The notes below the pieces were generated by a model. That model worked only from the letters and a program-made list of their open reading frames with translations, did not search any database and was not told the DNA's origin. The position numbers were made by a program, and so were the translations under genes. This document shows positions 1,629-49,729 of a stretch of DNA of 64,000 bases, in pieces. The DNA comes from Paecilomyces variotii (lineage: Eukaryota), in assembly GCA_004022145.1 (NCBI GenBank), contig RCNU01000001.1. One strand, 5' to 3'. Numbering within the stretch: the stretch's first letter is position 1; each line of letters starts with the position of its first letter.

Positions 1629-3646
1629 TCATCGCTTCTCCAAGCGACTCAACGCGCCCAAGACGAGACTGACGTCTCTTGGTTTCTCGCGTCTTATTCG
1701 TACCCTTGCTCTTCCCTCGCCCTCGCCCTCGTCTGTACTTCCCTCGATCTCTAATCGTTCAAGGGAGTTCTGCATGTCTCGTTCCTCTAGTCGTTGGGCA
1801 CAGATGCGCAGTATCTGCGAAGACACATTGTCTGCCGCAGAACGGTAGAGCTCGATATCATGGACACCTGCAGCAAAAGAGTCAAGCGTAGGTGCTAAAG
1901 ACGATGTCACCTGCGATAAACGAGAAGAGACAGCAGATATAGTCGTATTGGACAATAGGTCCGCCGAAGGAGACTGCTGTGGGCTCCGCCGGCTTGCACC
2001 TGCTTGCTGCAGTGCGGGGTTCAAGATTGCTAGTAGATCTCTCTGTGAAGGATCCAAGAGAGATGCGTCGATGTCTTGGGTCTCTGGCAATTGGGAGTCG
2101 GTTCTACCACCTTGGCTCTCCGTTTGTCGTTCTGACTGCAGAGATTTCGTATGCGGAATAGAAGGTGCTCGCAATAGAGCATTCAAAGAATGACGTTCGT
2201 TTTGTAACCTGGGTAGCGAAATTTTAGCCTTGGATTTCCGAGAAGCAGGGCGTTATTTTTCAAGCATACCTCTGTATTTGTTCCTCGAGCTCCTTTATCT
2301 TCTCTGCATTTTGGATATTCTTGGGATTGGGCTTCTTGACAACCACTGCCGGAGGCTCTGTCTCTTGTCTGCCGAACCAATCTGATAGCTCAGATACGTT
2401 TGCAAAGTCTTTCAACAGTTCCTCTTGAATGACTCGTGCTGCGATCAGTGAGTACATGAACTGCTCACTTGCTGTATTTCTCATTACTTACCTGCTAATC
2501 TTGCACTTTCGTCATCTGATCGAGACCCCGATGGCTTGTCCCCCATTGCTCGAGTAGCACACCATGTCAACAGTTGCCGCATTCTCCGTGGCTCTGGAAG
2601 ATCGCTAGCGATGTGTTTGTAGAAATCGGCTGCGTTGACTTCCTTGTGTGGAAGCGCTGCAAGAAAAGTATTAGTACTCCGTTCTATTCCAGGGTAGCCG
2701 GGTTGCTCGAGAGGGTCTCTCCCACCATTGGAGGCGCCAGAGTCTATCAGAGAACTGGCTCTTCTTCCTCGCATCCCAAGACTACTCCTTCTTTGGCCCT
2801 TTTTACCCTTCTCCGTTCTCATCTCCTTGTTTCGACGGATAACTGGGGTATCTGCAACTGGCAAGGCAATCTTTGACGTTCCTGGCTGCGACGGTTCGGG
2901 TGACATGAACGTATTGTTTTCGGTACCAGATTTGCTGGGCCTGCCTCTCTTCTTCTTGGGCTCAACTGAAAGTGAATCGATATCGTCAAATTTGCGAGTC
3001 GGACGAGAAGGCTCCTCAGATGCTCTGTCAGGTTCCGCAGACGTAATCCTCGAACTTCTTCGTCTCCCCCTCCCTTTGGTTGCTCCGTTGGTTTTCGTAG
3101 TCTCTTCCGTTACGCCATTCACTTCTGCCTCCGTTTTCGACTTCGTCGGTCTCCCTCTCTTGGGTGATCTCCGTTGAGCCGGTTCCTCCTCGACCCTCTC
3201 TGCAACTGAAGTCCTAGGCTTCTTCGGTTTGCTCGGGCGTGTGAACTGGAAACCATCCACATCCTCATCATAGTCTGTTATGAAGTATCAAACAAAATCA
3301 GCGGACCCATATACGACTCCGTACGCCTTCAATGCTAGCTGCCTCCCCGTTTTTCAACCCCTCGCCGGGTCCTTTCAATTGACCGACACTGAAAGACATT
3401 GCACCACTCACCAGCTTTTCTCTTGCTATCCACAGTCCTCCCACCTCTCCCATTCATGCCTGTGTTCACCGCTACCGCATCCTCCTTCGTCTTTGCTGCG
3501 CCTCGTGATCTCTTTCCTTTCCCCGTATCTTGCGCAGACGACGACGCAGGACGCGTCTGCGCCTGCGACGTCGCCATATCAATCGCCCTCAACGGTTCGC
3601 GACGCGTTATCTTCGTGCTTGAGGTTGTGACGACAGTGGTGCTCAT
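1629..3646 (-). CDS. dsn1: Kinetochore Mis12/MIND complex subunit Dsn1/Mis13-like, multi-exon
   Basis: ORF pieces 3335-3646, 2484-3260, 2260-2484 and 1629-2186 join across GT..AG introns (e.g. 3411-3275, 2725-2657). Contains RRSSLGMRGRRASSL and PHKEVNAADFYKHIASDLPEPRRMRQLLTWC, typical of fungal Dsn1/Mis13. Confidence 0.8.
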
Positions 3647-8525: not shown

Positions 8526-11500
8526 TACCCAGGCGGTCAGCTCTCAAGGCATTGAAAGCCACGGCAGCTTCCTTGGCCAAGGTCATACACTCCGGGAGAA
8601 GATGGATCGGACGAGAGAGCGCAATTTATCGGGGCAATTACTGTGAAAGGGGGGAAAGTTCCAGCTGCAACGCCGCCGGGAGGCTCTGTGGGCGATGCTG
8701 GACTAAGAATATCATCGAAGCCATCACCCCAGGCGGGACGGGCGTTAAGACAATGGATGCACAACCCCCAAACAACACCTTACGGAATCCGCGGCGGTCG
8801 GCAAACGCTCTCCAGGCGACATCAAGGCATGGCATCGCTCCAGCAGGCTTCATCCAACTCCTATCTCGTCCGCAACAGGGCCCAACAGACCTCAGGTCCG
8901 CTTTACCGCTGGTCCCAAGCGATCTCCGACTCCACATGGTGACGAGACCGCGCCGAGTCTACTCTATGATACTATCATCTCTGGTCGATGATGACAAGCG
9001 CCCGTTTGCGTATTCAGAAATACCTCGTCCTTTGTCCAGCGGTGGCGGTGTGGTATTGTTATGGTATTTATTAGCATCAATGTCATGGTGTACAGCTTCT
9101 GGACACGTTCGATGAGCAATCCTGGTGCTGTCAATCGTCAGGACGAACAACAGCCTTGAAGCCGTCGTAACGGCATGCATGGATGCGATTCAACGTCGCT
9201 TAATAATTTTTTTTTTTTTTTTTTTCAATATCTGTCCAGACGTCTGTTTCACACACAAGCAGAATATGCACGCCATCGGACCCCGACAGAGCCCCTGTGG
9301 CTGATTCCTCTGGGCTGTAAAACTAGAGTAGAAGCCGGTTCGAAACCAGGATCCTTCCCGCGCTTCTAGAGCAGAGCCAAGCACTTTCTGCGGCCCGCCC
9401 GCTGGGAGATCCGAAGTTCCGCACCTGGTTCAACTGTTGCGGGGTCTGTTGCTGCTGCGAGGATCTGCAGCTTTCACCAAGTTTATACCGGAGCGTTGGC
9501 CTGGCCTTTCGACATCACACGGACTTCAGAGCAGTGTGGAGGATATTGATCCCTGATCGACCTACAAACCCTTTCTCTCCTCTGTTAGTAATCCCCATTG
9601 TCTCAGTCGAAGATCATGACCCAGCGTGGTCTGAGCGAAGGAGAGGAGAACGAAAATGATCGGGACGACGGGACCATATGCAGTCTCTGCAAATTATCCG
9701 TGCGACACTATAAGAGAAGCCAGTTTTTGGTAATTGTGGAACCATATTAATTACGTTACCAAGACCGTTTTATCAAAATACTACGTACAACTATAGTGAC
9801 TGCTACAGCCTACTAACTAGACGAGATCGAGCGCGACGAGAAGGATGCTGCGCGAGAAGGGATAATGATATATCGCGATCAAGTTGCGGAAAGGGAACCT
9901 CGAAAAAAAAGGAAGATAAATTAGGTATACAAACTTACCAAGACCCTGGACTTACCTAGTCCGTTTATTGCCCAAGCGTTAGACAAAGGGAAAATATCTG
10001 TTCTGAAGGACGTATGCCATCGTTCTATCTATCCGTGCAGACCACCGTCAGCAAGAAATAACGTTTCTTGCCCCCCTCAACGAGTACACAACCGAGGCTG
10101 AAGACCAGCCGTCATAAGCCCAAGTGCATATGACTTCCAATCGTGGTTGATGGTCCTCAAAGCTTCTTAGCTGAAACTGAAGCAATTAGAGCCACTGACG
10201 ACCGGAAGGCACAGCGTATTATTTAACCATGGCTCTCACCCGGGCACGCGATCAATTATTTATCCGTTGTTATCATCATCATTCTCATTATTATTTCTAT
10301 TATTTTCTCTGCAGGTCTAGCCACTCAATTACTTCCAACCAGCCTCCAGCACCTAGTAACTAATCCAGTAGTGTATCTGCTACCAGTAATAAATAACTCG
10401 CACTTGTTTTCGCGTGGAATTCGGGGAAATACACTACTTAGTATTACTTAGTTAAGAACCGTTGTCTTCCTACTAACCACTCAGAGTCTAGTCAAGAGAC
10501 TCAAAAGAAAAAAAGAAGGGAAGGAAAAAAAAAAAAAGGAACGCTGCATGGAGCTACGTATCGACCAATGATCTAGAACAGTAATTATCTAGCCAAAATA
10601 ATAATAAAACCCACATCTAGGCTACAGGGAAAAGCAACAGAGAGAAAAAATCACAGCCACAGAAAGAGGCGGCGGCTCTGGGGCACTACTTACTGCATTG
10701 GTCATTCTCCACCGCGGCTGAGCTTCAGCTCTGGTATAGCCACCGTACCTAGAATACCGTAGTAGTAGTTCGAACGTCATATGCACCTGCCACCAAGTCC
10801 GTGGCATTGTCAGATTATGTCGAACCAGTAGTTAGGCTGGGCGATGACAGATCGTTGGCGAAGACTCAACGTCTGTTAGCTTCTAACGCTGCCCAGAAGT
10901 TGAAGTATAGATAGTTAGTGAGTGGTTTTTACGAAGAGTGGAGTAGGGGAAGAAGTGCGGCTGAGGAAGGTACAGTAGAGAAGCTGTGGGAATCCAGGAC
11001 CACGGAAGCAAAAACACTGGAAAAGCATTTGATACAATAAAATCTTAATTGCTTACAGAACTAGAGGAGTACTGAAATCTATCAGCCGTTTATGCCTCTG
11101 TCCTGGATTTCTACTGCCTGGAGCTGCGCTGGAACACTGTCTTGAGCGTTCCATGGTTCCAGCGTGTCTGCTCTATTGATGGATATAGGTGGCTTCCCGT
11201 TGCAGCTGCTACCCGGTTTGTATAGGATAGTAGCAGCAGTCTGCAGCTCGCTTCCACTGTACAGTGGGTGTATATTATGGAACGTCAAACAGAGCCCGTT
11301 GTCTTCAAGTTCATTCGATACTAGTGTGACAAGTGATTATCAATGTAGTTGCCTGTATTTATCTAGTCGGATGCTTTAGTATCTTCTCCATTGACATGGT
11401 AGATTTCTTGAATTGATCATTGAAGAAGTTAAACTCGGAAGTCTTAGCAAACGCGACACATGGTATATTAACGACGGTTCTTAGGTGGTGGATGTCTAAC

Positions 11501-28344: not shown

Positions 28345-29428
28345 CTATATCTTTGCCCTTTTTCTTTTGAGTGGACGAGAAACCAATGCGCGCAATGATT
28401 CGTCATCCGGTGCCTCTTCATTGCCTCTGGAGACCATCGGGTCGACTGTATGGAGGTTACCGTATCGACTCTTGCACGCAAGCTCCCACACAACAAATTC
28501 CGAATTCGGTATGAATTTCTTGGGCTTCCCCACGTATTCAACACTCTCTAGATCTACGATGAAACTAGTGGTTCCCATCAGCAATAGCGTCATGAGTATA
28601 AATCAAACTAGAAGGATTTACCATCTTTTTGTCTCATCATCCCATATTAGGTTGTGTCTACCGCGATCCATGTGGCGATATCCAAGAGAATAGAACTCCC
28701 TGTGAGAAAGCTTCAGCAGACATTCAGATAGAACATGTAAAGCATGAAGGCTTTTCTTACCGTATAGCCCTTGCAGCGGCTATCCTGACTTCATCTCGCT
28801 CCTTCAGCGTGAAGGTGTGGAAATTATTCAGATTCCGACCCGGTACCTTCTCCATTAAGATAAACGCAATATATCCACCCGGGACATATTGATCCTTTGT
28901 CTGTGTTGATATGCGATAGTCTAGCAGTTTAGGAGTGCAACTGCAGCCTTTCTCTGTGAGCTGCTCAAGGAAATCAATCTCATTGTCTGCCATCCAACTG
29001 ATTTCATCCTTTGCGAATTTAGAGTGCTCTCTGTCATCATCATCTTCGTCATTGCTGGTGTCAGGAGGGATCCTAAGCCAGGAACAGATCAGTTCATTCG
29101 GTCCTTATGTCGATCTCGAGAAGAGTGATGCGAGAATGGAGAACAGATGGAATACTACTCACTGCATTCGTACTCTCAATATCGCCTCCGAACTTTTCGA
29201 TGGGCCTTCTGTCTGAACAGCAATACAAATCCCGGAGGCTTCGTAAAGGTCGTGCTCTCCGGTGTCCCTGGCATCAAAAACTCTCTCGGTCAAGATCTGC
29301 TCAATCTTCCATTCAGTCTTCGTTTTGGGAAAATATATTCGGTAACTGCTTTCGCCTGTTTCGTCTTTACTCTCTGTGAGAATGTCCAACCAGTCTGATT
29401 TTCTCGTGAGACCCAAGTCTTCCGCCAT
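28345..29428 (-). CDS. Atypical fungal protein-kinase-like (PKL fold) protein, 4 exons, 291 aa
   Basis: Exons 29428-29163, 29072-28761, 28699-28622 and 28564-28345 (all GT..AG; 876 nt, in frame). Motifs AILRVRMQIPP, E-I-D-F-L helix, CTPKLL, VPGGYIAFILMEKVPG (hinge), HMDRGRHNLIW (HxDxxxxN catalytic loop), CFIVDLE (DFG equivalent). Confidence 0.8.
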
Positions 29429-30663
29429 CGTGCATTTATTTATGCTCAGGCGAGGTCACAGAGAGGGTGAGGCCAGGTATAAGCATAAGGCTTCTACACT
29501 GGCAGAAGTTGCAGTGATAAAAAGTCGGAATGAGAAAAAGAGTGGTATGCTATGAGACTGTGTGCTCAGAAAAGAAGTTGGTGTTCCTCCGTCAAGTGAG
29601 GTGTATGTATGTAGGTAGGTACTCTTTGTTCCAGGACCACACTTTAAGTGGGTCCAGCCGCACACTAATATAGGACCTTTCCACCAATTGCATTAGATCC
29701 TCAAAACACGACAAGGTATCAACTTGTAGGTGATGATACAACTCCATGGACCCATGCTTCCCGGCAATTTATCTTGTTCTTTCAGATGTTCAACCCGTTT
29801 TACTGTCATTCTCTTTATCTGTCCTTTATCTCGCCGAACTAAGACGAGACGACCCGCACGGAAATATGTAGCCTGTTTGGAGGACCAAATTTGCCGCAAG
29901 AACAAAAAACAATATCCAATATAGATAAATATAAGTCACACAGATAGTGGGTCAGGTGGGTCAGTAGTCAATTTACTGTGTAGCTATTTGCCATAGATTC
30001 TGTAACATGCTATAGTGTCAGGGCTTACAGCTTTAATGGAGGCGAGCTGCAAAACGCCACCACTACCCTATACAAAGGGTATAGAACAAACAACATGAAG
30101 CCACCAATTTCCACCAATATAGGATCAAAGCAGACACGCTGGAATTTGGAAACGTTCAGGAATAGTGGTGGAGGCAGTGCTCTAGGCAGCAAGCAATTAG
30201 GGGGGAGTCTGTGGGCGTAAAGAGTCGATACATTTTGGTACCCTCTAGTTGTCCAAGCAATTAAGCTCTTATTCCCGTATCAAACACCATTGCAATATCT
30301 TTGTTTCTGTGGTCTTAAATCTTTACACATATGATCTAGCAGTTGAGTTTGTCAACATATGAAAAGTTAGGAGATATCAGTTCTGCCATATAGCCCAATG
30401 ATTATTTCATTCTTGCGCCATGTTAAGACCCAGTAATAATGCAACCTCCCGGCATCTAACAGCTGTAGCGAAAGAAAGTTGCGACGTGTCTCTATTACGT
30501 AGATAAAGGATACGGGAATTACCAGCTGCCGCCCCTTTGAACAAACTACAAACAAAAGAGATATTCTGCATGCGGCATACGACGAGACAAAATGCTGGAG
30601 CTCTTTGTACATCTTAGAATGGAACCAATGATATGTTTCCATACCTTCACAACATCGAGGACT

Positions 30664-30727
30664 TGAGATATTGATGAATATGGGAATCGTATCACCACTA
30701 GAATATTACAGCAAGAGCGGGCCAGGA
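30664..30727. repeat. Partial tandem copy (~64 bp) of the adjacent duplicated segment
   Basis: tgagatattgatgaatatgggaatcgtatcaccactagaatattacagcaagagcgggccagga resembles 30800-30852 and the reverse complement of ~37195-37264. Confidence 0.85.
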
Positions 30728-30728
30728 A

Positions 30729-30914
30729 ACAGACCCCGCAAGCCAGGATCATGGAGTCACTCTAGAAACGAAAGTGAATAAGTTGCGGAGAAAGTGATCT
30801 GAGATATCGATGAATATGGGAAGCATATCACCAGTGGACTATTACAGCAAGAGGAGCTCGGGATGACTTCACAATCCTTGCGGCAAGCCTATGATGTACG
30901 GAACTTCAGCTTCT
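30729..30914. repeat. Inverted copy of 37141-37335 (arf6/ccg-9 intergenic DNA)
   Basis: Aligns by eye to the reverse complement of 37141-37335, with exact blocks caggatcatggagtcactctagaaacgaa (29 bp) and agttgcggagaaagtgatctgagatatcgatg (32 bp), plus a few substitutions and short indels. Confidence 0.95.
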
Positions 30915-31135
30915 ATTTGTAGACACAATGCCATTTCTTTGTAACCGGATATCCGTGGTAGTTATAAATCAATGTTATAACTCATTAGAGCTGGCCTCCA
31001 TGGGAACTTTCGCATCACACTAAAAAGTTATTCATGCTGATAAAAACCACTTCTAGCTGCACCGCAATATCTTCTTCTCATCTTGGTCTTCTCTTCTCTG
31101 AAACTGTTCATATACAGACGTATTCGACTGACACC

Positions 31136-32520
31136 ATGGTCACCACACGGTCGATGGAAAAGGCTAAAAGCAACAGCGGCCAGAAGACGAAAAGCAACAG
31201 CGGCCAAAAGACGAAAAGCAACAGCGGCCAAAAGACGAAAAGCAACAGCGGCCGAAAGACGAAGAGGCGTCAACAAACACAGACACCGAATGTGGCCTTC
31301 TTTAAGGCACGAGACATAGTCATGTCCTCCTTCCCGGAATGCCTGACAAACGAGCAACATCATGTGCGATCAAGCGCTATACATCGCCTAAAGTACGCTC
31401 GGGAATTGGTGCATTGGGTTGACTTTCAGGAGGACGTGCGTCGGACATTTGACTCGATATCTTGGGATGACTATCAGAGACCCCTCGACGTCAAGTTCCA
31501 TGAAACCACAGGGAATGAAAATGTATTGAGGGAAGAGCATTTCATGTCAGGTAATGAACTCTCGACAAACTCGAGATATGTGCAGCACGTCCTGCACGTT
31601 ATGTCGGCAATAGCAAAAGAGATAGGCATCGGTGTGTTCTTCGGAGATTGGGATGCAACAGATGCCCGTCAGGCATCGAAGAAAGCGAAGGAGGAAGCGG
31701 AGGGGAAAGGGAAGAAAGGGGGGAAAAAGGGGGGGGGAAAGGGAAAAGGAGAGGCTCAAAGTGCTGAAAGCAGCAAGGCACAGAAATCCGAATCGACCGA
31801 AGTGAACAAAGACATGGATCTCCAACCCGATTTCGCCCTTATGGATTCCGAGTTTGTCCCCCGCGCAGTGGGTGAGGGTAAAACCCCCTTCAGTCAGCAT
31901 CAATTCTCGAGGGACGTCAGTGATGCTATCGATGGGCGTGATGATTCTCTACTTAGGAACATTCTTGGTAAGTAGCCCAGATTGACCAGGATTTACACTT
32001 AGTATCTGCCGTTTTAATCTGCAGCATCTACCTACCTAGTCATTGAGCAACCCACCCACCCCCCTAATGTGATATTCGAGCTGATAAGCGAATAGGCCAA
32101 CCCGCACGGTACATGCGCGCTTTCGATCTCAAATACGGATTCATAATGAATTACAAAGACACAATATTCCTTCGGCAGGAGTTTGTGGCGGGGTCCTGGA
32201 AGCTCATGTATTCAGACGTGATTCCTCATGACCAGGTATCAACAATAGAGCCTGTCAAAGTATCTGTCAGGGAGGCAATGCTCTTCCTGCAGGCAGTAGC
32301 TGCTGGTGACAAGACAGATTGGACCAGCTACAACACTACGCCGCCGGAAGAGTGGGTTAAAGACCTCAAACCAGGAAAGAAAAGGAAGAGGGACTCAAAA
32401 GTTGTTGGAGGTGATAGAGGTGAAGCGGAAGGGGAAGAAAGGAATAGCCACAATGATGAGGACGCTGGTAATGACGAACCAGGTCCGTCAAGAAAAAAGA
32501 AACGAGTGTCCTTCGAGTGA
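31136..32520 (+). CDS. Fungal PD-(D/E)xK (restriction-endonuclease fold) nuclease-like protein, 2 exons, 418 aa
   Basis: Exons 31136-31967 and 32096-32520 (intron GTAAGT..CTGAT..TAG). Motifs GNE, QPDFALM, VGEGKTP (PD..ExK), LGQPARYM (QxxxY), KYGFIMNYKDTIFLRQ. Basic C-terminal tail. Confidence 0.75.
31166..31261 (+). repeat. Coding minisatellite, 4 x 24 bp (KSNSGQKT x4)
   Basis: Unit aaaagcaacagcggccaaaagacg starting at 31166, 31190, 31214 and 31238, with single-base variants. Confidence 0.95.
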
Positions 32521-33783: not shown

Positions 33784-34378
33784 GAAAGGAAGGGTTTCGG
33801 GTCATGGATTGGAAGGCAGTCTGATTAATGGGGCGTTGTGTAAAGGAATAAGGCGCCTGGGTTTAATGTGCTAAGGCTGGACTTCGTTATCAATCGAATA
33901 GCTTGAAGTTTTCACTCACGTCTTTGGTCTCCAATGCTATGGCATAGTAACGGTGGTACTTACACCAAGGCTACGTAAGAGTCTACTATAACTAGTACTA
34001 CTTAGGTAGTACGTAGTAGCTTCATGAAGGCAGCTAAACTCCAAACTCCTCCACCTCTGAATTAGATTATGCGCTAAAGACATCTACTCCGTAGTCTAGT
34101 CGGGATCAAATAAGCGCCGGAGGAACGTGCTCTATATTCTATGGTACGTGGCGCGACGCGTCGATTTTGGCAATCAATTAGTGAGGCTAACTAAACTACC
34201 ATAGACTAGACCTGTGTACTCGAGTCACTGTTTACATTATATCACTATTATCCACGGATAGGAAAAGAAGAAAAATCCATTTTGTCTATCTATCGCAACT
34301 AATCTTTGGTAATTCATCCACTTATTTGTTCGTTAGTCATCTTCCCATCCCGCAGGCTATCTTGCGTTCTGTACCGCG

Positions 34379-34945
34379 ATGCCTCCCAAAACACGTGGTG
34401 GAAGCACCAGAACACGCGGTGGAAGCACCAAAACCAACGCGCCGAAAAAAGGACGCATCACAAAGCGCGCTCCCAATAAACGTACAACCAAACCAGATAC
34501 CGTGATATCGTCTCGACAAGCTAGAGAGCTATCTCCCGAGGAACTCTGCTTCTTGCGGGGTCCAAACGGACCCCCGACCTACGACCATTTAGGTTATGAA
34601 CTCGACTATCACAAGGTCGCTGGCTCATTTTGCCGCCGTGGTCGTCCAGGAACTCAAGCCTATACGGATATGCTAGAGCGGGATGAGCGAGAGAAAAACC
34701 GCAAAGCAGATATCATGGGTGGTCCTGAATGGAACCAGCGGTCGGCTATGACGTTGATGTTATGGACTGACCGTGTTGCGCGAGATCTGGGCATCCCATA
34801 CCATAAGGTGAAGATGGAGCAATTTGAGGAGTGGCATGCCAAGGGGTTCCGCGCAAACGGGGAGGAGTTTATTGCAGCGAATGTGTCGCCAGAAGAGCAG
34901 GATAGGGTGACAGACTTGGCAACAGGGAGTGCATTTAGGAAGTAA
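34379..34945 (+). CDS. Hypothetical protein, 188 aa, basic RGG-containing N-terminus
   Basis: Intronless ATG ORF. MPPK start, duplicated TRGGST, globular-looking C-half (RGPNGPPTYDHLGYELDY; WTDRVARDLGIPYHKV; FEEWHAKGF). Confidence 0.7.
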   Translation: MPPKTRGGSTRTRGGSTKTNAPKKGRITKRAPNKRTTKPDTVISSRQARELSPEELCFLRGPNGPPTYDHLGYELDYHKVAGSFCRRGRPGTQAYTDMLERDEREKNRKADIMGGPEWNQRSAMTLMLWTDRVARDLGIPYHKVKMEQFEEWHAKGFRANGEEFIAANVSPEEQDRVTDLATGSAFRK

Positions 34946-36840: not shown

Positions 36841-37461
36841 CTTGCCTCGAGTAACTATCAGCTGTTCAGGGGAAATTTCATCTCCCTGTCACCTCATCCT
36901 TGCATCGTGAAACATCTCCCATCAGGCGCTCCCGGCGGGACGGACCATTGACCAACTCCACGTTGAACCAAGACCAAGACCCTTGTTGGCCTTATCGCGG
37001 CCTCACCTCTGCTGCTTCCGTATGCACGCACCGGCTGGCTTCATCCACGCTGGTCACGCGGATGAGGAAGAAAATAATGTCGACCTGTTTCCGTCGTATA
37101 ACTTATGCATCCTCAACTTGTTTGTTCCAGTGTTCGATGGAGAACTGGTTGGTTCTGTACGTCATAGGCGCAAGGATCGTGAAGTCATCCCGAGCTCCCG
37201 GCCCGATCTTGCTGTAATATTCAAGTGGTGATATGCTTCTCATTATTATCCATCGATATCTCAGATCACTTTCTCCGCAACTCATTCACCTTCGTTTCTA
37301 GAGTGACTCCATGATCCTGCGCGTGCGGGGTCTGTCGTACTTTATAATCAATTGAGCCTCTGCGCGTCAACCCGTGGGTACAAGAATACAGATAGTACAG
37401 TACATAGATCAACCCCGCACCAGACGAAGCAGAAGACAAAGCAGAAGACACATTAGCCATC

Positions 37462-47785: not shown

Positions 47786-49729
47786 ATGGCGACCGTTGGT
47801 CCTGCCCTTCCCCCGAAAACTTTCGTCTTGTGTTTTGATGGCACAGGAAATAAGTTCTCGGGCGATGAGTCTGACAGTAATGTGCTTAAAATCTTCCGCG
47901 TAAGTTTCCGTCTACTAGCAGGTTAGGCCAATGGTTAATTCGCTGCCCAGATGTTGGACCGCAATCGGGGTAATCAGTACCATTATTATCAGCCTGGAAT
48001 CGGTACATATGTAACAACCACGTCCCTTTCCAACCATGGAACCTTCCATCGCATCAAATCAGCGTATATGAAGGCGAAGGATTCAGCAATTGGGTCGTCA
48101 TTCGATGATCATGTCATGGGTGGATATAAATTTCTGATGCGGTATTATACGCCCGGGGATGACATCTATTTTTTTGGCTTCAGTCGAGGTGCCTATATTG
48201 CCCGCTTTCTTGCGGAAATGCTTGACTATATTGGTCTCCTGGAGTCTGGGAACGAGGAATTGATCCGGTTTGCATGGAAGACATTTGCCAAATGGCAACA
48301 GAGGGCTGGAGACACCGAAGAGGATCGTAAAGAGAAAAAGAAGTTGTTCAATTACATGAAAGCCTTCCGCGAGACGTTCAGTCGGCCTGTCAGTCGCATC
48401 AGATTCATGGGTTTATTCGACACGGTAAACAGTGTTCCACGATTTGAGTCTGCTTGGATGCAACGCAGCAAGTTTCCATACACGGCTCGAAGTTCCGCAA
48501 GAGTCATTCGTCACGCCGTTGGAATCGACGAGCGCCGTGCGAAATTCCGCCAGGATCTGATCTCAGAAGCTAGACCTTGGAAGGAATCTAATCACCATAG
48601 GCATTACTGGAGGAACAAACTCCACACGGATGGTACAAAGCACCAGGAAAAGCCAGAGGTTGTTCCCACGATCGTGCTCAATGACAATGACAATCAAGAG
48701 ACCGCAGCCAGGACACAGGGAAAGCAGCGGGGTCACGATGACAGCGATTCAGTATATCGCACTCCGCATAGCTCCCGACCTGGCAGTCTGCACAACGAAC
48801 AGAGATACCGACCTCCATCTCCGAATAGGAACGCTGGCCTTGAAGTCCCAATCCAGGCAGCCTCGACGGAGGACCTGGCTTCCATTCGCAGCGGCGTCTC
48901 TGGGACCTCACTCCAGGTTCCCGGTTTCTCCTTTGATGCTAACGAAGATGAGACTGCTCAAGATATCGTGGAAGTATGGTTCCCTGGTGGCCATGCCGAT
49001 ATTGGAGGTGGTTGGAAGCTGGCAGAAGGCGAGGTCTGGCCACTTAGCCACGCTCCTCTCGTTTGGATGGTGCAAGAGGCGCAAAGAACGGGACTCTCCT
49101 TTGATCCTAAGAAACTCAAACAGTTCGAGTGTTGCGAGGAGTACTCGGGGGACTTCTCCCCTATCAGCAGCCGAAGCGTCAGCCCTGACCTGACGGCAGA
49201 AAATAGCGAGAAGAGGACTGAGAGTTATCAGGCGCGGTATGGTGGCAGTCGCAAAATGGATCAGTCCATCTTAAGTTATAACTTCCACGAGGCACTGCGC
49301 CTTTCCAGCACCAAGGGTCTGCTTCACGACTGTCTCCAGTTCGGAGCCGGCTTGCCCTTCTCCTCTGTTCTCTCGTGGCGCATAATGGAATATCTTCCAT
49401 TTCGACGTATGGATCTTCAACCGGATGGGTCGTGGAAACCAATTCGATGGCCTCTTCCGTGTGGAGAAGTGCGTGATATCCCATCAGATGCACAGATCCA
49501 TGTATCTGTTATCCGTCGCCTGCAAGCAGATCCTACTTACCGCCCTGGCAATCTCATCGTGGGTGGAGGTGGTCGGGGTGTCAGAAAGGCCCCAGAAGAG
49601 TATGGTATAGGTGAATGGGTTATATTCCAGAATGAGGGAGACCCGGTCAGGGAGACCTACATCCGGAAGAGTCATTCTAAAAGGTGCAGGGATGACCACT
49701 TGAGTAGATGTCTCGAGATTGGTCATTGA
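47786..49729 (+). CDS. DUF2235 (Tle1-like) alpha/beta hydrolase, 2 exons
   Basis: VLCFDGTGN..SNVLKIFR|MLD, YYQPGIGT, nucleophile GFSRGA, GLFDTVNSV, RHAVGIDERR, EVWFPGGHADIGGG. Intron 47900-47950. Confidence 0.9.

Follow-up and report, generated by a model that had tools for sequence, protein, structure and literature searches.

We analysed a 64,000-nucleotide stretch of the Paecilomyces variotii genome (NCBI GenBank assembly GCA_004022145.1, contig RCNU01000001.1; hereafter the window), within which two spliced genes occupy positions 28345-32520 and lie head to head, gene A on the minus strand and gene B on the plus strand, with their start codons 1707 bp apart. Gene A encodes a predicted small kinase and gene B a predicted PD-(D/E)xK nuclease, relatives of the two recur together in distant clades, and the genes may form a coupled toxin/antidote-like pair that divides between two proteins the activities joined in the Spok drivers. 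A preliminary description of this DNA had reported two intact spliced genes diverging from a 1.7 kb intergenic region, a 291-aa kinase with HxDxxxxN and DLE motifs and an Arg in place of the VAIK Lys (AILRVRMQ), a 418-aa protein with PD..GExK..QxxxYM..YG motifs, and basic tails on both proteins. We recovered the exons, the splice sites, the 1707-bp spacer, all motif positions (H202-x-D204..N209 and D223-L-E225 in gene A), R85, which is common to all three Paecilomyces kinases compared, and the tails (KRKRAKI at 285-291 in A; KKRKR at 372-376 and RKKKR at 410-414 in B).

The features of the pair are listed below by window coordinates. P0009, P0010 and P0011 are the three Paecilomyces kinases, and P0006 is an NCBI-annotated protein of 426 aa ('hypothetical protein [Paecilomyces variotii]'). 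Fractions are column counts, in P0006 numbering, from 151 B-family members aligned to the profile of a 40-member alignment. NLS stands for nuclear localization signal.

29428-29163, 29072-28761, 28699-28622 and 28564-28345 (stop included), minus strand: gene A exons, 291 aa
29174-29176, minus strand: gene A, codon of R85, at the position of the ATP-binding beta-3 (VAIK) Lys
28651-28674, minus strand: gene A, HMDRGRHN catalytic loop, H202-M-D204..N209, with H, D and N invariant in P0009, P0010 and P0011
28546-28554, minus strand: gene A, DLE (D223-E225), equivalent of the DFG-type metal-binding motif
28348-28368, minus strand: gene A, KRKRAKI basic tail (residues 285-291), NLS-like
29429-31135, no strand: spacer between the divergent start codons, 1707 bp
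31136-31967, plus strand: gene B exon 1, residues 1-277 plus one base
31158-31263, plus strand: gene B N-terminus, 24-nt tandem repeat, KSNSGQKT units, 4.4 copies
31556-31558, plus strand: gene B, codon of E141, conserved Glu opening a long helix (E149 in P0006; E in 137/144)
31826-31831, plus strand: gene B, P231-D232, the 'PD' of PD-(D/E)xK (P239 in 137/144, D240 in 141/144)
31874-31882, plus strand: gene B, E247-G-K249, the 'ExK' of PD-(D/E)xK (E255 in 136/145, K257 in 135/143)
31968-32095, plus strand: gene B intron, 128 nt, GTAAGT..AG
32096-32520, plus strand: gene B exon 2, with the QxxxYM helix, the KYGF..Y..T.F strands, the remaining fold, the basic tail and the stop codon
32098-32112, plus strand: gene B, Q279-P-A-R-Y283, QxxxY motif (Q287 in 109/118, Y291 in 108/115)
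32377-32391, plus strand: gene B tail, KKRKR (372-376), NLS-like
32491-32505, plus strand: gene B tail, RKKKR (410-414), NLS-like

Gene B encodes a predicted PD-(D/E)xK nuclease

The frame of gene B is intact and yields 418 aa after splicing, with a splice junction (between RNILG and QPARYM) identical to that of P0006, which matches exon 1 at 97% and contains one additional 8-aa repeat unit. Exon 1 codes for the basic repeat, the N-terminal half of the nuclease fold and a disordered loop rich in K and G, as well as for the PD and ExK motifs. Further motif residues of the protein are M284 and Y291-G292. The N-terminal repeat is basic, rich in S, N, G and K, and disordered, with no sign of a coiled coil, and its copy number varies between strains, as P0006 and a second annotated strain version, P0007, each have one KSNSGQKT unit more than the window. 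The protein has a single Cys. Basic C-terminal tails were also present in the close relatives of gene B in the 40-member alignment, and a regular-expression search found a basic cluster within the last 40 aa in 23 of the 151 B-family members. As a separate observation, P0007 was found to lack 39 residues (VFFGDW..GKGKG, corresponding to window positions 31646-31762) that include the conserved FGD motif and the K/G-rich loop; either these residues are truly deleted, or an intron was called within a low-complexity stretch.

We then asked how widely this protein is distributed by an exhaustive HMMER search over 1.84 billion cluster representatives, which returned 364 family members at E ≤ 1e-3, 136 at E ≤ 1e-10 and 18 at E ≤ 1e-30, most of them 200-450 aa long. 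In the 40-member alignment, the family comprises two conserved blocks around a variable, often low-complexity spacer. No Pfam domain was detected in P0006 or in the 30 members scanned, the longest included; Pfam on single exons gave nothing meaningful, the PADLOC and NCBIfam models did not match gene B, a sequence search of Protein Data Bank (PDB) chains with the B profile returned 0 matches, and a pattern scan of prokaryote genomes and viral contigs returned no relative. The catalytic columns were conserved in 92-98% of aligned members, and D, E, K and Q were all kept in 98 of the 113 rows covering all four positions. Gene B of the window has every conserved residue (E141, P231-D232, E247-x-K249 and Q279..Y283), and given this family-wide conservation its putative nuclease motifs represent more than chance. 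Within its own 90% cluster (10 member sequences), gene B was almost invariant. Two other proteins with the P. variotii label, P0007 and P0008, belong to the family, the latter being a divergent version (60-68% identical) that ends at 242 aa just past ExK; the closest relative beyond them, P0012, was 36% identical in a library clustered at 50% identity.

To obtain a fold prediction, P0006 was modelled with AlphaFold2 (AF2) from the 40-sequence alignment, giving a predicted template-modelling score (pTM) of 0.74 and 238 residues with a predicted local distance difference test score (pLDDT) of at least 90; its disordered parts were the first 45 residues, the K/G-rich loop and the C-terminal tail. 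In this model the upstream Glu stands at the start of helix 149-170, ExK sits at the end of strand 250-256, and the equivalent of Q279..Y283 lies in helix 279-294, after the ExK strand. A structural search independent of Foldseek (VIA-align, 48,161 chains, with a repeat run in agreement) placed the model closest among enzymes to the nuclease domains of DrdV (Z 9.3, rmsd (root-mean-square deviation) 2.9, 137 residues aligned) and BpuSI (Z 9.2), followed by 3ijm (Z 7.2) and the HsdR proteins of Vibrio vulnificus (3h1t, Z 7.1) and EcoR124I (Z 5.9), where the stated background of the tool is 7-8. Further matches included NgoMIV, SgrAI, BsaWI, BbvCI, NucC, Hjc, Cas4 and others, and restriction-endonuclease-type nucleases, judged by their titles, made up the majority of the 50 rows shown. 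The model also matched mitoribosomal large-subunit proteins (chains '5' and 's', human and mouse) with Z 8-9.6 over 172-192 residues, two of these proteins scoring Z 8.0-8.8 in the first run; we take these chains to be inactive restriction-endonuclease-like folds. They are structural ribosomal proteins with 6-8% identity to gene B, whereas gene B keeps all catalytic residues and has NLS-like rather than mitochondrial signals. The structural matches covered model residues 63-360, so that both conserved blocks fall within one domain. On the one-sided match list, this coverage and the motif conservation taken together, we are confident that gene B is predicted to have a PD-(D/E)xK (restriction-endonuclease) fold of the HsdR/type IIG kind.

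Gene A encodes a predicted small kinase with an altered ATP site

The three introns of gene A (90, 61 and 57 nt) are all GT-AG, and its translation equals P0009 letter for letter, the start excepted. P0009 is an uninterrupted 287-aa open reading frame (ORF) on Logan contigs of at most 1339 nt; since the genomic copy is split by three introns and P0009 is unbroken, these contigs are probably spliced transcripts, and the Logan ORF would then be the sole expression evidence for the pair. The stretch or part of it is present in 20 of the 24 listed sequencing runs, six of them labelled RNA, and three runs of the same species had a share of about zero; we base no conclusion on these shares.

Conservation among P0009, P0010 and P0011 is strong across the kinase core; P0010 is a divergent version (82% identical to P0009) with the P. 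variotii label from another strain. To place these proteins in a wider context, they were compared with two distant relatives described below, the kinase of a metagenomic locus (L001) and a kinase segment in the B-family protein P0072. The L001 equivalent of the catalytic loop is HYDPHRRN, and the DLE motif corresponds to IDLE in P0010 and IIDLED in the L001 kinase, while P0011 reads VVGIED, with Gly at the Asp position. The strand with R85 reads AILRVRMQ in P0009 and P0010 and AILRIRMQ in P0011, giving Arg in all three Paecilomyces kinases, and the aligned residue is Lys in both distant relatives with that strand (IAKIRIQ in L001 and AILKIRMQ in P0072), which makes Lys look ancestral. The KRKRAKI tail was present in P0010 and absent from P0011 and the L001 kinase; where present, it may serve nuclear import.

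With regard to family membership, P0009 fell below the Pfam cut-offs for Kdo (E 5.7e-4; 19.8 bits, cut-off 21.3) and aminoglycoside phosphotransferase (APH; 13.9 bits, cut-off 23.2), and P0010 passed both (Kdo 26.1 bits, APH 24.7 bits). The A-type proteins matched the NCBIfam Kdo kinase models weakly (E 1.2e-4 and 7.4e-6) and Bud32 also weakly, and gene A and its relatives weakly matched the Pfam RIO1 model. Gene A further gave weak matches to bacterial defence kinase components (PD-T4-6, E 3.8e-4; MkoA; mad6), and a search of PDB chains with the A profile gave only matches of E 0.3-0.9, one being COQ8B. In the ESM Atlas, gene A scored 0.99 to Ascomycota clusters named Kdo or APH domain proteins, and small kinases of this type were abundant there, with many Ascomycota and Basidiomycota clusters of 52-319 members. 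An AF2 model of gene A built from only three sequences had a mean pLDDT of 33. By sequence, gene A is best classed as a probable small kinase of the Kdo/APH-like type whose ATP site is altered.

A-type kinases and B-type nucleases are linked elsewhere

Linkage of the two families was assessed by a pattern scan of metagenome contigs built on an 11-sequence alignment and by a search for kinases, with three kinases as queries, within the 151 B-family proteins. The metagenome scan returned one relative locus, L001 (7641 bp). Positions 911-1891 of L001 contain a B relative whose segments are 90-96% identical to the family member P0018, and approximately 490 bp downstream, at about 2382-3455, an A-type kinase lies on the same strand. 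This kinase (tblastn E 4e-33 to 7e-36) has four open exons, three intron positions as in gene A, and intact K, HxD..N and DLE. The arrangement of the pair is divergent in the window and tandem in L001.

An A-type segment in the same gene model was found in two of the 151 B-family proteins. In P0072 the B core (89-345) is followed by the N-terminal part of an A-type kinase (379-546; blastp E 1.8e-18, hmmsearch 3.9e-21), and in P0101 a piece of an A-type kinase (9-104; blastp E 2.8e-10, hmmsearch 4.3e-12) precedes the B core. Whether these are fusions or merged models, both families lie on the same strand within the span of one gene model in each case. In a FastTree phylogeny of the B family (the 91 of 151 members whose rows covered at least 60% of the profile, the other 60 being dropped; 263 columns; midpoint root; supports not considered), gene B of the window, P0018/L001, P0072 and P0101 fell in four separate clades at patristic distances of 2.5-3.2 substitutions per site. 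With genomic context from two loci, the occurrence of the two families side by side, in differing orientations and in distant clades, points to selection for their being inherited together and not to chance. As far as these comparisons reach, the predicted nuclease-kinase module is real and conserved, and gene A is by type genetically tied to putative B-type nucleases across Ascomycota.

Genomic surroundings of the pair

Several repeats and neighbouring genes were identified in and around the pair:

30037-30314, opposite strand to its partner: spacer repeat fragment, 68% identical over 281 nt to 10998-11256, 19 kb away
30729-30905, plus strand: dispersed-repeat copy (repeat of ~190 nt), partly duplicated internally at 30664-30717
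34337-34945, plus strand: unknown gene, 202-aa open frame, no Pfam match
about 35.4-36.1 kb: Arf-like GTPase gene, within the low-G+C stretch

Two dispersed-repeat fragments lie inside the spacer, and any shared promoter or co-regulation of the two genes is therefore hypothetical. The left copy of the ~190-nt repeat (30664-30905, with its 54-nt internal duplication) has an inverted partner at 37152-37335 (189 nt at 85% identity, rising to 96-97% in sub-stretches), and these inverted repeats bracket gene B, the unknown gene and the Arf-like GTPase gene. A composite transposon between them (30.7 and 37.2 kb) was considered and rejected, as the short arms are copies of a dispersed repeat, the segment contains the Arf-like GTPase gene, and gene A lies outside it; we read the repeats as putative copies of a MITE-like (miniature inverted-repeat transposable element) sequence, not transposon ends. 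The G+C content falls to 0.44-0.47 at 28-36 kb against approximately 0.50 on either side, a dip covering the pair, the unknown gene and the Arf-like gene. The frame at 34337-34945 has a basic N-terminus encoded on a 21-nt tandem repeat (2.3 copies, 34386-34434), similar in style to the N-terminus of gene B.

The remaining genes of the window encode Mis12/Mtw1-like, phosphatidylserine decarboxylase, sugar transporter, protein kinase, UBR-box, MCM2, methionine-synthase-like, trehalose-synthase-like glycosyltransferase, dynactin-5, Tle1-like (DUF2235), amine oxidase, NmrA-like and thymidylate synthase proteins. No recombinase or other mobile-element gene was detected among the 33 long window frames scanned, and no second copy of the A or B family was found in the window, with 0 of 251 tblastn high-scoring segment pairs lying beyond the locus. 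Separately, the long frame at 47939-49726 (plus strand) strongly matched the catalytic domain of Tle1-like phospholipases of the type VI secretion system (PF09994, E 1.8e-84), here in a fungal genome.

Comparison with Spok drivers and other known systems

The published features of Spok proteins used here come from three papers. SPOK3 has in its N-terminal half a variable repeat (coiled coil), a folded domain at 40-170 and a disordered region at 170-210, followed by a PD-(D/E)xK motif at 219-240 and, at 294-298, a QxxxY motif such as HsdR-type nucleases are described to have; V. vulnificus HsdR is the best HHpred match of SPOK3 (Vogan et al. 2019, PMC6660238). A cysteine cluster (C-x3-C-x13-C-x5-H-x7-H) lies upstream of its kinase, which is nearer to Kdo-type ELKs (eukaryotic-like kinases) than it is to ePKs (eukaryotic protein kinases) (PMC6660238). 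The K240A substitution abolishes killing and D667A abolishes resistance, SPOK3 with D667A or with its kinase removed is toxic, and autophosphorylation, a shared target and a small molecule are discussed as routes of kinase protection (PMC6660238). SPOK1 without resistance damages DNA in E. coli and yeast (Urquhart and Gardiner, PMC9972908), Spok3 and the FuSpoks behave as toxin/antidote in yeast (PMC12693581), and architectures combining a restriction endonuclease (REase) with a kinase are described as widespread (PMC12693581).

By prediction, the pair shares with Spok proteins (Podospora SPOK1-4 and Fusarium FuSpoks) the combination of a PD-(D/E)xK nuclease with QxxxY and a Kdo-kinase-like ELK, and gene B repeats the Spok order of variable repeat, folded block, disordered spacer, PD..ExK and QxxxY, its model matching the same V. 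vulnificus HsdR structure (3h1t) as SPOK3. In contrast to Spok, the nuclease and kinase lie on two divergent genes with separate starts and stops rather than in one chain, the N-terminal repeat of gene B is basic and S/N/G/K-rich, gene A has Arg at the beta-3 Lys position, and the first folded block, described as a domain of its own in SPOK3, forms part of the nuclease fold in the gene B model. A further likeness is nuclear targeting, which is reported for Spok and suggested for genes A and B by their NLS-like tails.

Among the 30 nearest ESM Atlas clusters of gene B, five have a family set whose representative cluster bears SPOK2_N (PF27653) on 76% of its members (best score 0.91, 181 of 256 features shared), and the three nearest clusters have no common family; we regard this as a lead. 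Fused forms of gene B of Spok length were not found among proteins of 1067-3045 aa, the range searched, with 500-1000 aa lying outside it. The literature was searched for a two-gene Spok-like pair and for the B nuclease family, and no description was found. Since the Spok cysteine cluster is absent and the N-terminal repeat is basic and disordered, we file the locus as Spok-like in parts and not as a member of the Spok family; any kinship of the pair with Spok is putative.

Beyond Spok, gene B follows the E..D..ExK..QxxxY order of HsdR and the type IIG/IIL enzymes (EcoR124I, V. vulnificus HsdR, BpuSI, DrdV), which are its best enzyme matches. In those enzymes the nuclease domain is an N-terminal module of a large bacterial protein, a motor or a methyltransferase, whereas gene B encodes a eukaryotic protein that stands alone and has a long disordered stretch inserted ahead of the PD strand. 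Gene A shares HxDxxxxN and D-L-E with Kdo kinase (KdkA/WaaP), Bud32/RIO and APH kinases, all matches being weak, and differs from them in belonging to a fungal family of proteins of about 240-300 aa, with Arg for the beta-3 Lys in Paecilomyces. The eukaryotic REase-plus-kinase conflict effectors also tie a restriction-endonuclease-type nuclease to a kinase (PMC12693581); unlike the A/B pair, they are described as fused multidomain proteins.

A proposed coupled pair of nuclease and kinase

We propose that genes A and B form a coupled toxin/antidote-like pair, in which a putative nuclear DNase encoded by gene B is restrained by the kinase encoded by gene A, so that the activities of Spok are split over two genes, and we assign this interpretation a probability of about 0.5. 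Under this proposal the gene B protein would enter the nucleus by way of its KKRKR and RKKKR tails and would cut or nick DNA with its canonical E/D/ExK site. The gene A kinase would restrain or counteract it through phosphorylation, either of the nuclease itself or of the nuclease's target, or else, given the Arg, through binding. In Paecilomyces, protection may rest on binding or weak phosphotransfer because of the Arg at the ATP-binding Lys position. Predicted complexes of A with the B core (55-392) scored 0.55, 0.60 and 0.53 against 0.46 for a control, which is evidence neither way. The preliminary description had proposed a split Spok-like toxin/antidote module. This proposal was partly supported. 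Its fold and motifs were borne out, and two of the conditions that it named as refuting were checked and did not apply: the 418-aa protein has a confident AF2 model that aligns with restriction-endonuclease domains, and homologues of the two genes are adjacent in one other genomic locus (L001) and share one gene model in 2 of the 151 proteins. Of the Spok features, the cysteine cluster and the single chain are absent from the pair. A toxin/antidote role of the pair is plausible as a hypothesis.

Several points weigh against this interpretation. Each of the three Paecilomyces kinases has Arg (R85 in gene A) where the ATP-binding Lys is expected, and in P0011 the DFG-type Asp is missing as well, such that these kinases may be weak or inactive. 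Foldseek against the PDB gave nothing at E ≤ 1e-3 for the B model, its weak rows being restriction-endonuclease-like proteins, and a Z of about 9 is barely above the background of 7-8 stated for the other structural tool. The Spok cysteine cluster is missing, as neither A nor B contains C-x3-C or the cluster pattern. With respect to linkage, genomic context was obtained for two loci, the window and L001, of which the window is the ascertained one; 149 of the 151 B-family proteins have no kinase segment, and in P0072 and P0101 separate genes may have been merged into one model, in which case neither would be a true fusion. The nuclease copy in L001 is disrupted, lacking P0018 residues 29-120, including CGEE..GRF, and carrying at least two frame shifts. 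Finally, the pair sits among housekeeping genes in a core-looking stretch with no obvious mobile element, and this core-chromosome setting, together with the near-invariance of gene B in its 90% cluster, leans away from conflict genes.

The same setting would suit a pair that is coupled and not selfish, in which the nuclease works for the host, for instance against mycoviruses or transposons, in allorecognition or in DNA repair, and is activated or shut off by the kinase, which would phosphorylate either the nuclease or its substrate. The linkage and fold evidence fits such a switch too, the position between housekeeping genes (MCM2, methionine-synthase-like, Arf-like GTPase and trehalose-synthase-like) and the invariance of gene B among its 10 close member sequences are in its favour, and so are the weak matches of the kinase to the bacterial defence models PD-T4-6, MkoA and mad6. 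However, the nearest B relative outside P0007 and P0008 is just 36% identical (P0012), divergent second versions exist under the same species label (P0008 at 60-68% and P0010 at 82%), and in L001 the nuclease is broken beside an intact kinase. These three points, none of them decisive, fit conflict genes better than a stable host function. A host-serving switch appears unlikely to us, albeit a serious candidate.

That an uncharacterised nuclease merely neighbours a member of a very large fungal family of small kinases by chance is considerably less credible. The abundance of A-type kinases (ESM Atlas clusters of 52-319 members), the differing orientation of the pair (divergent in the window, tandem in L001) and the restriction of real genomic context to two loci all speak for chance neighbours, but the sole independent locus retrieved also has the pair, the only foreign segment seen in 151 B-family proteins is an A-type kinase, twice, no other Pfam domain occurs in the 30 B members scanned, and the linked cases come from four distant clades. 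We hold it to be just as improbable that the locus is a decaying relic in which the nuclease, the kinase or both no longer work in the Paecilomyces genome. The Arg in the three Paecilomyces kinases, the loss of the DFG-type Asp in P0011, the end of P0008 at 242 aa right after ExK and the disrupted nuclease of L001 are signs of such decay, yet both window genes are intact with canonical splice sites, none of the conserved catalytic residues is missing from gene B, P0009, P0010 and P0011 show strong conservation of the kinase core, and a probably spliced kinase ORF occurs on Logan contigs.

Implications

The divergent versions P0008 and P0010 may be either alleles of the window locus or members of a second pair. 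In its broadest form, the toxin/antidote-like reading would make B nucleases and A kinases a widespread, undescribed two-gene toxin-antidote system of Ascomycota, sometimes fused and representing a split sister or ancestor of Spok, which in P. variotii would act as killer and protector in meiosis or after hyphal fusion; this larger scheme is rather doubtful and is offered tentatively. A large fungal family without a Pfam match nevertheless gains a predicted fold and a likely partner. The natural split of nuclease and kinase means that each can be separately expressed, mutated, localised and purified, making the protection exerted by the Spok kinase directly testable. Collectively, the two genes occur split, in tandem and within one gene model, which suggests that fusion or fission of such pairs may have given rise to drivers of the Spok type.

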